Below are positions 32,332 to 35,285 of a DNA stretch of 64,000 nucleotides, piece by piece. The position numbers and the translations under genes are program-made. The notes beneath the pieces were generated by a model. The model was given only the letters and a program-made list of their open reading frames with translations, was not told where the DNA came from and did not search any database. How positions within the stretch are numbered: the stretch's first letter is position 1; every line of letters starts with the position of its first letter. The DNA comes from Escherichia coli (GTDB lineage: Bacteria > Pseudomonadota > Gammaproteobacteria > Enterobacterales > Enterobacteriaceae): NCBI RefSeq assembly GCF_048403405.1, contig NZ_CP183129.1. One strand, 5' to 3'.

Positions 32332-33216
32332 ATGAAGCCTTTTTTGCGCTGGTGTTTCGTTGCGACAGCACTTACGCTTGCAGGATGCAGTAATACTTCC
32401 TGGCGTAAAAGTGAAGTCCTCGCGGTACCATTGCAACCGACTTTACAGCAGGAAGTGATTCTGGCACGTATGGAACAAATCCTTGCCAGTCGGGCTTTAA
32501 CCGATGACGAACGCGCACAGCTTTTATATGAGCGCGGAGTGTTGTATGATAGTCTCGGTCTGAGGGCATTAGCGCGTAACGATTTTTCGCAAGCGCTGGC
32601 AATCCGACCGGATATGCCTGAAGTATTCAATTACTTAGGCATATATTTAACGCAGGCAGGCAATTTTGATGCTGCCTATGAAGCGTTTGATTCTGTACTT
32701 GAGCTTGATCCAACTTACAACTACGCGCACTTGAATCGCGGGATCGCATTATATTACGGCGGTCGTGACAAGTTAGCGCAAGATGATCTGCTGGCGTTTT
32801 ATCAAGACGATCCCAATGATCCTTTCCGTAGTCTGTGGCTTTATCTCGCCGAGCAGAAGCTCGATGAGAAGCAGGCTAAAGAAGTGTTGAAACAGCACTT
32901 CGAAAAATCGGATAAGGAACAGTGGGGATGGAACATTGTCGAGTTCTACCTGGGCAACATTAGCGAACAAACGTTAATGGAAAGGCTCAAGGCGGACGCA
33001 ACGGATAACACCTCGCTCGCTGAGCATCTCAGTGAAACCAACTTCTATTTAGGTAAGTACTACCTAAGTCTGGGGGATTTGGACAGCGCCACGGCACTGT
33101 TCAAACTGGCGGTTGCCAACAACGTTCATAACTTTGTTGAGCACCGATACGCATTGTTGGAATTATCGCTCCTGGGCCAGGACCAAGATGACCTGGCAGA
33201 ATCGGACCAGCAATAG
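32332..33216 (+). CDS. nlpI: TPR-repeat outer membrane lipoprotein NlpI
   Basis: 294-aa ORF with lipobox LAGC near the N-terminus and TPR repeats. Confidence 0.96.
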
Positions 33217-33322
33217 CTGACGTACACATCAGCCCGTAATCTTTTTTGATTGCCATCACCTTAACGGGTGAGGGCGTTGTTGTTCGTTAATACACCTACT
33301 TTGAGCCGGTTCACACTTTTCA

Positions 33323-33403
33323 ATGAAAATTGCTGATCAATTTCATGATGAGTTATGTAGACTGGCCGCCATTAATTTTGAGGCACACGTACTACATGGC
33401 TGA
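33323..33403 (+). CDS. yrbN: Small ORF (26 codons) overlapping the deaD start, candidate YrbN
   Basis: ATG 33323 to TGA 33401-33403 encodes [26 protein letters not shown]; its stop overlaps the deaD ATG (ATGGCTGA); position corresponds to the annotated E. coli small protein YrbN, recalled from memory. Confidence 0.5.
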
Positions 33404-35285
33404 ATTCGAAACCACTTTTGCAGATCTGGGCCTGAAGGCTCCTATCCTTGAAGCCCTTAACGATCTGGGTTACGAAAAACCATCTCCAATTCAGGCAGAG
33501 TGTATTCCACATCTGCTGAATGGCCGCGACGTCCTGGGTATGGCCCAGACGGGGAGCGGAAAAACTGCAGCATTCTCTTTACCTCTGCTGCAGAATCTTG
33601 ATCCTGAGCTGAAAGCACCACAGATTCTGGTGCTGGCACCGACCCGCGAACTGGCGGTACAGGTTGCTGAAGCAATGACGGATTTCTCTAAACACATGCG
33701 CGGCGTAAACGTGGTTGCCCTGTACGGCGGCCAACGTTATGACGTGCAATTACGCGCCCTGCGTCAGGGGCCGCAGATCGTTGTCGGTACTCCGGGCCGT
33801 CTGCTGGACCACCTGAAACGTGGCACTCTGGACCTCTCTAAACTGAGCGGTCTGGTTCTGGATGAAGCTGACGAAATGCTGCGCATGGGCTTCATCGAAG
33901 ACGTTGAAACTATTATGGCGCAGATCCCGGAAGGTCATCAGACCGCTCTGTTCTCTGCAACCATGCCGGAAGCGATTCGTCGCATTACCCGCCGCTTTAT
34001 GAAAGAGCCGCAGGAAGTGCGCATTCAGTCCAGCGTGACTACCCGTCCTGACATCAGCCAGAGCTACTGGACTGTCTGGGGTATGCGTAAAAACGAAGCA
34101 CTGGTACGTTTCCTGGAAGCGGAAGATTTTGATGCGGCGATTATCTTCGTTCGTACCAAAAACGCGACTCTGGAAGTGGCAGAAGCCCTTGAGCGTAACG
34201 GCTACAACAGTGCCGCGCTGAACGGTGACATGAACCAGGCGCTGCGTGAGCAGACACTGGAACGACTGAAAGATGGTCGTCTGGACATCCTGATTGCGAC
34301 CGACGTTGCGGCCCGTGGCCTGGACGTTGAGCGTATCAGCCTGGTAGTTAACTACGATATCCCGATGGATTCTGAGTCTTACGTTCACCGTATCGGTCGT
34401 ACTGGTCGTGCGGGCCGTGCTGGCCGTGCGCTGCTGTTCGTTGAGAACCGTGAGCGTCGTCTGCTGCGTAACATTGAACGCACCATGAAGCTGACCATTC
34501 CGGAAGTTGAACTGCCGAACGCAGAACTGCTGGGCAAACGTCGTCTGGAAAAATTCGCCGCTAAAGTACAGCAGCAGCTGGAAAGCAGCGATCTGGATCA
34601 ATACCGTGCACTGCTGAGCAAAATTCAGCCGACTGCAGAAGGTGAAGAGCTGGATCTCGAAACTCTGGCCGCCGCACTGCTGAAAATGGCACAGGGTGAA
34701 CGTACTCTGATTGTTCCGCCAGATGCGCCGATGCGTCCGAAACGTGAATTCCGTGACCGTGATGACCGTGGTCCGCGCGATCGTAACGACCGTGGCCCGC
34801 GTGGTTACCGTGAAGATCGTCCGCGTCGTGAACGTCGTGATGTTGGCGATATGCAGCTGTACCGCATTGAAGTGGGCCGCGATGATGGTGTTGAAGTTCG
34901 TCATATCGTTGGCGCGATTGCTAACGAAGGTGACATCAGCAGCCGTTACATTGGTAACATCAAGCTGTTTGCTTCTCACTCCACCATCGAACTGCCGAAA
35001 GGTATGCCGGGTGAAGTGCTGCAACACTTTACGCGTACTCGCATTCTCAACAAGCCGATGAACATGCAGTTACTGGGCGATGCACAGCCGCATACTGGCG
35101 GTGAGCGTCGTGGCGGTGGTCGTGGTTTCGGTGGCGAACGTCGTGAAGGCGGTCGTAACTTCAGCGGTGAACGCCGTGAAGGTGGTCGTGGTGATGGTCG
35201 TCGTTTTAGCGGCGAACGTCGTGAAGGCCGCGCACCGCGTCGTGATGACTCTACCGGTCGTCGTCGTTTCGGTGGTGATGCGTAA
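33396..35285 (+). CDS. deaD: Cold-shock DEAD-box RNA helicase DeaD (CsdA)
   Basis: 629 aa from ATG 33396 ([33 protein letters not shown]...), motifs [25 protein letters not shown] and RGG-rich C-terminal tail; ORF-track start 33330 is an upstream extension. Confidence 0.97.

Follow-up and report, generated by a model that had tools for sequence, protein, structure and literature searches.

A conserved hairpin predicted to pair the body of the small gene yrbN with the start of deaD in Enterobacterales

The window analysed here is a stretch of 64,000 nucleotides of Escherichia coli DNA (RefSeq assembly GCF_048403405.1, contig NZ_CP183129.1), in which a sequence-only reading had proposed that a 26-codon frame opening at an ATG at position 33323 is yrbN, and that its translation may be coupled to that of deaD. 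DeaD, or CsdA, is one of the major RNA helicases of the cold-shock response, and both ribosome assembly and translation in the cold require it. The frame is present in the window as described (Table 1), and the gene annotated by RefSeq at the same coordinates is yrbN, 'protein YrbN' (WP_010723222.1), with an identical translation. Its counterpart in K-12 MG1655, b4685 (YP_002791258.1), encodes the identical protein within an identical surrounding region of 241 nt; position and 8-nt overlap with deaD are also as in the window, and with no difference between them the two are the same gene. The peptide matches the NCBIfam equivalog model NF033440 (small_YrbN) over residues 1-26 of 26, with 76.3 bits against a cutoff of 33 and an E-value of 9.4e-22, and a Pfam search with it returned no domain match. 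The annotated YrbN was found not to depart from the translated candidate, and the identification stands. The 401 nt around yrbN were matched in 5425 of 5426 complete E. coli genomes, in 5424 of them at a level of at least 99%.

The yrbN ORF is already known: it is an annotated gene, carried by RefSeq and UniProt, and both its overlap with deaD and a possible role as a leader peptide are in print. The gene was reportedly named by Hemm et al. in 2008 after an experimental small-protein screen, in which SPA-tagged YrbN is said to have been detected. It lies between nlpI and deaD on the same strand and ends at the deaD start, an arrangement common to 30 Enterobacterales species. The stop of yrbN had been placed on the deaD start codon; the two ORFs do overlap by 8 nt, but the TGA sits on deaD codons 2 and 3 (GCT GAA) and not on the ATG. 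The absence of yrbN from the ORF track had been ascribed to a longer ORF covering the region, which proved wrong: yrbN is missing because it is shorter than the usual length cut-offs. In the 3.5 kb around the locus, 60 ORFs of at least 20 aa are listed, so a length of 26 codons alone is no better than chance, and the feature of the yrbN ORF that does exceed chance is its conservation over the 30 Enterobacterales species. The deaD frame is itself listed as an ORF of 651 aa (33330..35285) with a TTG start, which is the deaD frame extended to the previous stop. Neither this TTG nor the in-frame ATG at 33345 was accepted as the true deaD start: the extension is not conserved, and it was rejected because that frame is interrupted by at least one stop in all 30 species. 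Downstream, deaD (to 35285) is followed by mtr.

Table 1. Features of the nlpI-yrbN-deaD locus, in window coordinates.
Feature	Position	Strand	Remarks
nlpI CDS	32332..33216	+	mostly within the 838-nt deaD 5' leader
Promoter-like TTTATA-16-TATGAT	32523..32550	+	inside the nlpI CDS; position fits the published deaD TSS at -838
Nested stem-loop	33218..33289	+	right after the nlpI stop; intrinsic-terminator-like, degenerate U-tract
Block a GCCGGTTCACA (RNA GCCGGUUCACA)	33305..33315	+	non-coding, 8-18 nt upstream of the yrbN ATG; 5' arm of helix A
Hairpin H	33315..33353	+	weak, A/U-rich, encloses the yrbN AUG; UGAAA (codons 1-2) pairs with UUUCA (codons 7-8)
yrbN CDS	33323..33403	+	26 codons and TGA; reads ATG AAA ATT ... 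CAT GGC TGA; NCBIfam NF033440, RefSeq and K-12 b4685 agree; by translation of the window, ATG at 33323-33325 and TGA at 33401-33403
Block b AGTTATGTAGACTGGCC (RNA AGUUAUGUAGACUGGCC)	33351..33367	+	yrbN codons 10-15; 5' arm of helix B
deaD Shine-Dalgarno core GAGG	33380..33383	+	12 nt before the ATG here
Helix B 3' arm GGCACACGTACTACATGGCT (RNA GGCACACGUACUACAUGGCU)	33382..33401	+	end of the SD, spacer, deaD AUG, codon 2
deaD CDS	33396..35285	+	RefSeq start at window 33396
yrbN/deaD overlap ATGGCTGA	33396..33403	+	8 nt; yrbN stop 5 nt past the A of the deaD ATG

The claim that the deaD leader is regulated finds support in the work of Ojha & Jain 2020 (PMC7430678), in which the transcription start of deaD was mapped to -838, inside nlpI, at about position 32558 of the window. 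The promoter-like site of Table 1 is the only sigma-70-like site that a consensus scan found in 32400-33500; with such a site inside nlpI at the -838 start, about 660 nt of the 'untranslated' deaD leader are nlpI coding sequence. Autoregulation of DeaD was traced to mRNA stability and to Rho termination in the leader, and the authors concluded that the mRNA level explains it, with no sign of a translational component (PMC7430678). This work on Rho and mRNA decay leaves yrbN out of account and never mentions it (PMC7430678); its largest leader deletion, from -820 to -101, spares the last 100 nt, as do all published deletions. A preprint of 2021 (10.1101/2021.03.08.434349) described the 8-nt overlap and proposed yrbN as a leader peptide in an operon with csdA, using constructs in which yrbN was not separated from the remainder of the leader. 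The same preprint reported read-through into deaD from pnp in the cold only. Our literature searches on structure or coupling in the deaD/csdA leader returned nothing beyond these two sources.

The genes rimP-nusA-infB-rbfA-truB-rpsO-pnp-nlpI-yrbN-deaD form a one-strand run in the window, seen also in the equivalent region of strain FDAARGOS_497, which covers window positions of about 7000-57000. Several genes of this run are cold-inducible. The nested stem-loop behind nlpI is built of an outer stem, GACG(U/A)ACA / UGUUCGU, and an inner GC-rich hairpin, UCACCU-UAAC-GGGUGA, followed by GGGC and a U-rich run, and both stems covary over about 28 species. It looks like a leaky nlpI terminator, which the deaD transcript from -838 would have to read through; a terminator scan misses the element in E. 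coli because its U-run is interrupted. The 5' side of its outer stem is formed by TGACGTACACA (33218-33228), which matches 10 of the 11 bases of what we take to be the 'cold box' of cspA, UGACGUACAGA. A transcription start reportedly placed at -173 by Toone in 1991 corresponds to 33223, within this cold-box-like sequence. Block b was considered as the csdA 'cold box' and dropped, given that the cold-box-like sequence is the one just past nlpI. Block a was considered as a proximal promoter and also dropped, the consensus scan being empty there and two papers reporting no promoter near deaD.

For comparison between species, deaD loci were collected from one genome per species, and those with yrbN, from 30 Enterobacterales species of 7 families, were aligned (alignment A1). 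No yrbN was present in 50 other deaD loci, among them those of Pasteurellaceae, Orbaceae, reduced symbionts and marine gammaproteobacteria. The yrbN ATG is invariant in A1 (30/30). Between it and the deaD ATG, the 30 species together have 6 stops in the yrbN frame versus 55 and 97 in the other two, and the yrbN frame is free of stops up to the deaD ATG in 24 species, each of the other frames in none (0/30 and 0/30). Indels within the ORF are multiples of three, with the exception of a +1 in the Acerihabitans clade that truncates it, and those just upstream of the ATG are of single nucleotides. In codons 3-10 the third position is the most variable (0.57/0.82/1.05 bits for positions 1, 2 and 3), a pattern that is stronger in deaD (0.66/0.34/1.01). 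These features speak for constraint on the yrbN frame across Enterobacterales.

The peptide itself seems to matter little, as is suggested by an N-terminus and a C-terminal length that are not conserved: residues 3-6 vary freely, and the length ranges from 18 to 26 aa, with 18-22 aa in six of the 30 species. Conservation of the peptide peaks at ELCRLAA, residues that fall on a block with hardly any nucleotide variation, and the non-coding block upstream of the yrbN ATG is better conserved than the coding N-terminus. The last residues of YrbN are dictated by the sequence of the deaD Shine-Dalgarno (SD) and ATG. Relative to the deaD ATG, the yrbN stop lies at +5 or +8 in 24 of the 30 species and at -4, -14 or -19 in the other six; since yrbN ends 4-19 nt before the deaD ATG in the latter, the exact overlap is not essential. 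Every yrbN ORF, the truncated ones included, reads through block b.

Several loci add observations of their own. An uncultured Enterobacterales MAG (L032) has, some 70 nt ahead of deaD, a diverged ORF at the yrbN position, MKIVSCFLDNKYQRIDVNCGGM followed by a stop, which ends just before the deaD ATG; neither block a nor block b is left at this locus, and the ORF seems to have outlasted the conserved RNA blocks. Pasteurellaceae loci without yrbN (L038, L041-L047) share a different hairpin (GAAAGC...GAGCUUUCC), about 20-60 nt upstream of the deaD ATG and before an SD-like GAGUAUUUUAAUG, which suggests an independent structured deaD leader in this family. In Erwinia amylovora, where yrbN comprises no more than 18 codons and its stop lies 19 nt short of deaD, a single comparison lists both yrbN (log2 3.65) and a DEAD/DEAH helicase (log2 3.84) with its most strongly induced genes (PMC9371280, Table 4), consistent with their co-transcription. 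The legend of Figure 2 in PMC6001520 names a cold-shock-induced small protein 'yrbN_PAIR_0', and the text of that paper assigns the cold-induced band to YnfR.

Block b, nearly invariant at the nucleotide level in A1, is predicted to pair with the start region of deaD in a helix, termed helix B. This helix appears in both the minimum free energy (MFE) and the centroid structure of E. coli and is worth -18.4 kcal/mol on its own at 37 °C, and in 30 of 30 species the local fold of lowest energy is helix B with a paired deaD AUG. Its pairing is kept in 94% of the cells of A1 versus 15-49% in slid controls, with two pairs changed on both sides. The distance from GAGG to the deaD ATG is 9 nt in short-spacer species and 12 nt in the window, and the short-spacer class was realigned with metagenomic variants added, to give 19 distinct sequences (alignment A3). 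The metagenome scan itself yielded 15 distinct leaders, mostly the same as genome sequences, and little was gained from it for helix A. In A3, pairing of helix B is kept in 89.5% of cells (24-41% in slid controls), compensatory changes occur at three pairs (A:U to C:G or G:C; U:A to G:U; A:U to C:G), and the covariation score is 0.133 versus 0.075 in shuffles, a value reached by 0 of 500 shuffles. In Proteus, a compensating change from A:U to C:G restores the pairing of helix B yet creates an early UGA in yrbN, so that the helix is kept at the expense of the C-terminus of YrbN. A U-to-G change in the yrbN of the Acerihabitans clade has its counterpart in deaD, where codon 2 has become UCU.

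Ensemble prediction gives the deaD AUG a low probability of being unpaired, 0.06 at 37 °C and 0.02 at 15 °C; the value of 0.06 ranks fourth lowest among 47 neighbouring gene starts, which is low but not unique. This probability rises from 0.06 to 0.38 when a ribosome footprint is placed in silico on yrbN codons 8-17. The single-sequence folding z-scores are unremarkable (-1.6 and -0.65), and the case for helix B therefore rests on the comparative data and not on the folding energy in E. coli; given the very high conservation of blocks a, b and c, most of the pairing 'conservation' does not count as independent evidence. Taken together, the folds and the compensatory changes indicate that a conserved, covarying hairpin, with its 5' arm inside yrbN, is predicted to sequester the SD and the AUG of deaD. 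No description of a hairpin between the yrbN body and the deaD start, or of a competing upstream strand, was found in the literature searched.

The competing strand is block a, which in the RNAalifold consensus pairs with 33356-33366 inside block b (helix A). This pairing is kept in 99% of cells versus 10-47% in slid controls; no compensatory pair was seen in it, and four of its pairs vary by one-sided, wobble-compatible changes only. Helices A and B are mutually exclusive, block b being their common strand, and helix A would be transcribed first. On its own helix A is worth -9.2 kcal/mol, and folds constrained to A or to B reach -24.6 and -28.2 kcal/mol, so helix B is favoured by about 3.6 kcal/mol, at 37, 25, 15 and 10 °C alike. 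An Rfam search of the region returned no family match. The yrbN start may itself be partly closed. Hairpin H, 78% paired versus about 45% in slid controls, is weakly indicated, and the yrbN AUG is predicted to be partly paired, with a probability of 0.16-0.25 of being unpaired. Upstream of it there is no Shine-Dalgarno (CACACUUUUCAAUG). With no SD and a partly paired AUG, translation of yrbN may be too weak to drive the synthesis of an abundant protein. In deaD, GAGGCAC, with the SD core GAGG, is invariant (30/30).

We propose, at roughly even odds, that yrbN is a translated leader ORF that acts in cis, the ribosomes on it unmasking the deaD start or re-initiating there. The ORF is co-transcribed with deaD and lies at the 3' end of the 838-nt leader, where helix B (about -18 kcal/mol in E. 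coli) would hide the deaD start. A ribosome translating yrbN would have to melt helix B, and would reach its stop at a UGA 5 nt beyond the deaD AUG or, in the smaller number of species, at most 19 nt before it. With helix B melted and termination beside the AUG, a fresh 30S would gain access to the deaD start, or the terminating ribosome would use that start again, or both would happen. Pairing of helix A, for its part, would free the deaD start and hinder initiation at yrbN. Two features expected of translational coupling are seen here: the upstream stop overlaps or lies near the downstream start, and the downstream SD and AUG are predicted in silico to pair with the interior of the upstream ORF. 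Against coupling weigh the weak-looking initiation of yrbN, the loss of the exact overlap in a fifth of the species, and the GAGG of its own that deaD keeps unchanged, with which independent initiation is probably possible. The published account of DeaD autoregulation, in which the mRNA level suffices (PMC7430678), also weighs against it, as do the smORFs baxL and argL, examples of overlapping leader ORFs that repress the gene downstream (10.1101/511675). Coupling of yrbN and deaD, as suggested by the sequence-only reading, is thus plausible and gains fresh in-silico support from the covarying hairpin. Translation of yrbN would then raise that of deaD, and helix A or temperature may also have a role.

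A more elaborate form of this model, which we consider doubtful, makes the last ~100 nt of the leader a three-strand switch that would control DeaD synthesis. Block a would first pair, during transcription, with yrbN codons 12-15 in helix A, leaving the deaD start open; refolding to the stabler helix B would then close it, and DeaD synthesis would come to depend on the SD-less translation of yrbN. Low temperature, CspA or the helicase activity of DeaD might shift the balance. Such a switch, if real, would add a translational component to cold induction, beyond the regulation through Rho and mRNA stability that has been published.

Other explanations have to be weighed against a cis-acting leader ORF. 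YrbN could be a small protein acting in trans, for example as a binding partner, in the cold, of DeaD, of the ribosome or of the degradosome, with the overlap as ordinary operon compaction. Its core, F(H/L)DELCRLAAI, is kept at the amino-acid level over 7 families, some changes in it are synonymous (TTG, TGC, AGG, GCT), NCBI curates the family as an equivalog, and yrbN is co-regulated with the DEAD/DEAH helicase in the Erwinia RNA-seq data. We nevertheless find a trans-acting protein unlikely: what is conserved in the peptide falls exactly where RNA helices A and B lie, residues 3-6 differ widely between species, 6/30 species have a truncated C-terminus, conservation is higher in non-coding block a than in the coding N-terminus, Proteus kept the RNA pairing and lost the C-terminus of the peptide, and no Pfam domain was matched. 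At the other extreme, yrbN might not be functionally translated at all, its conservation being owed to RNA or DNA elements of the leader and its frame open by chance. Blocks a and b do show nucleotide-level conservation and few synonymous changes, yrbN lacks an SD, and its codon-position pattern is atypical, position 2 being more variable than position 1. Yet the stops number 6 in the yrbN frame and 55 and 97 in the others, in AT-rich sequence, and the ATG is invariant down to its unpaired A, indels come in multiples of three, and wobble variation is seen at CAT/CAC and GAT/GAC. The gene is also said to owe its name to the small-protein screen of 2008, and it stands in RefSeq and UniProt. An untranslated yrbN is accordingly the least probable of the readings considered, and by far.

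It is also conceivable, though improbable in our judgement, that translation of yrbN is neutral or even negative for deaD, its ribosomes occluding the SD and the AUG, and that the real control element is the RNA switch between helices A and B, on which temperature, CspA or DeaD itself would act. Two mutually exclusive conserved helices do compete for block b, and helix A would free the deaD start without any translation of yrbN; deaD keeps an SD of its own that does not vary, 6/30 species have lost the precise overlap of stop and start, and stop mutations in the leader ORFs baxL and argL raise downstream expression (10.1101/511675). Set against this, the predictions favour helix B over the helix-A fold by about 3.6 kcal/mol at all temperatures tested, so that the deaD AUG would be closed at equilibrium unless something opens it, and helix A shows no compensatory pair. 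Moreover, the yrbN frame is open through block b in 30 of 30 species, which is unexpected if its translation were only a nuisance.

If the hairpin is indeed opened by the translation of yrbN, it would add, at the level of translation, a second point at which an important stress protein is controlled, and a long-orphaned small 'protein' would gain a function in the act of its translation and not in its peptide. What is new here is that the hairpin and its competing strand, as derived in silico, turn the vague suggestion that the two genes might be coupled into a definite model open to mutational testing.

Among known leader ORFs, trpL, hisL and mgtL resemble yrbN in being short and in interacting with alternative RNA pairings; the pairing in yrbN, in contrast, targets the downstream start codon and not a transcription terminator. 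An attenuation leader peptide was accordingly considered and rejected: there is no terminator-like site between yrbN and deaD, because the ORFs overlap, and no regulatory amino-acid run in YrbN. An arrest peptide of the SecM/TnaC type was rejected as well, the C-terminal part being variable (18-26 aa) and showing no conserved motif. Alternative folds that differ in SD and AUG exposure underlie the cold thermosensor of cspA mRNA (Giuliodori et al. 2010, as cited in PMC9947658). Like cspA, deaD is a cold-shock gene, and alternative folds are predicted for its leader; cspA, however, has no leader ORF, and the deaD leader has no Rfam match of the cspA type, its helix B being predicted as the favoured fold at both 37 °C and 10 °C.

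Closer parallels are found in yoaL-yoaE, pssL-pssA, baxL-baxA and argL-argF (10.1101/511675) and in the uORF of iraD (PMC5574718), where, as with yrbN, a short leader ORF lies at the downstream start in another frame. Expression of yoaE and pssA falls when their overlapping smORFs, yoaL and pssL, are given stop mutations, and such mutations in baxL and argL have the opposite effect noted above; yrbN is not among the smORFs of that study (Weaver et al. 2019, 10.1101/511675). In these cases and in the iraD uORF, translation of the smORF alters downstream translation, as we infer for yrbN from its sequence. Unlike them, yrbN has no SD and has a conserved hairpin, documented in silico, between the smORF body and the downstream start. 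A downstream start locked by pairing with the upstream ORF, and opened by translation of the latter, is known from rpmI-rplT (L35-L20, infC operon) and from the cistrons of phage MS2. The interior of yrbN would pair with the deaD start in the same manner, the coupling here being read from sequence alone. The upstream ORF in this case differs in being only 26 codons long and without known protein function, and block a, as a third strand, might compete for the segment of yrbN that pairs with the deaD start.
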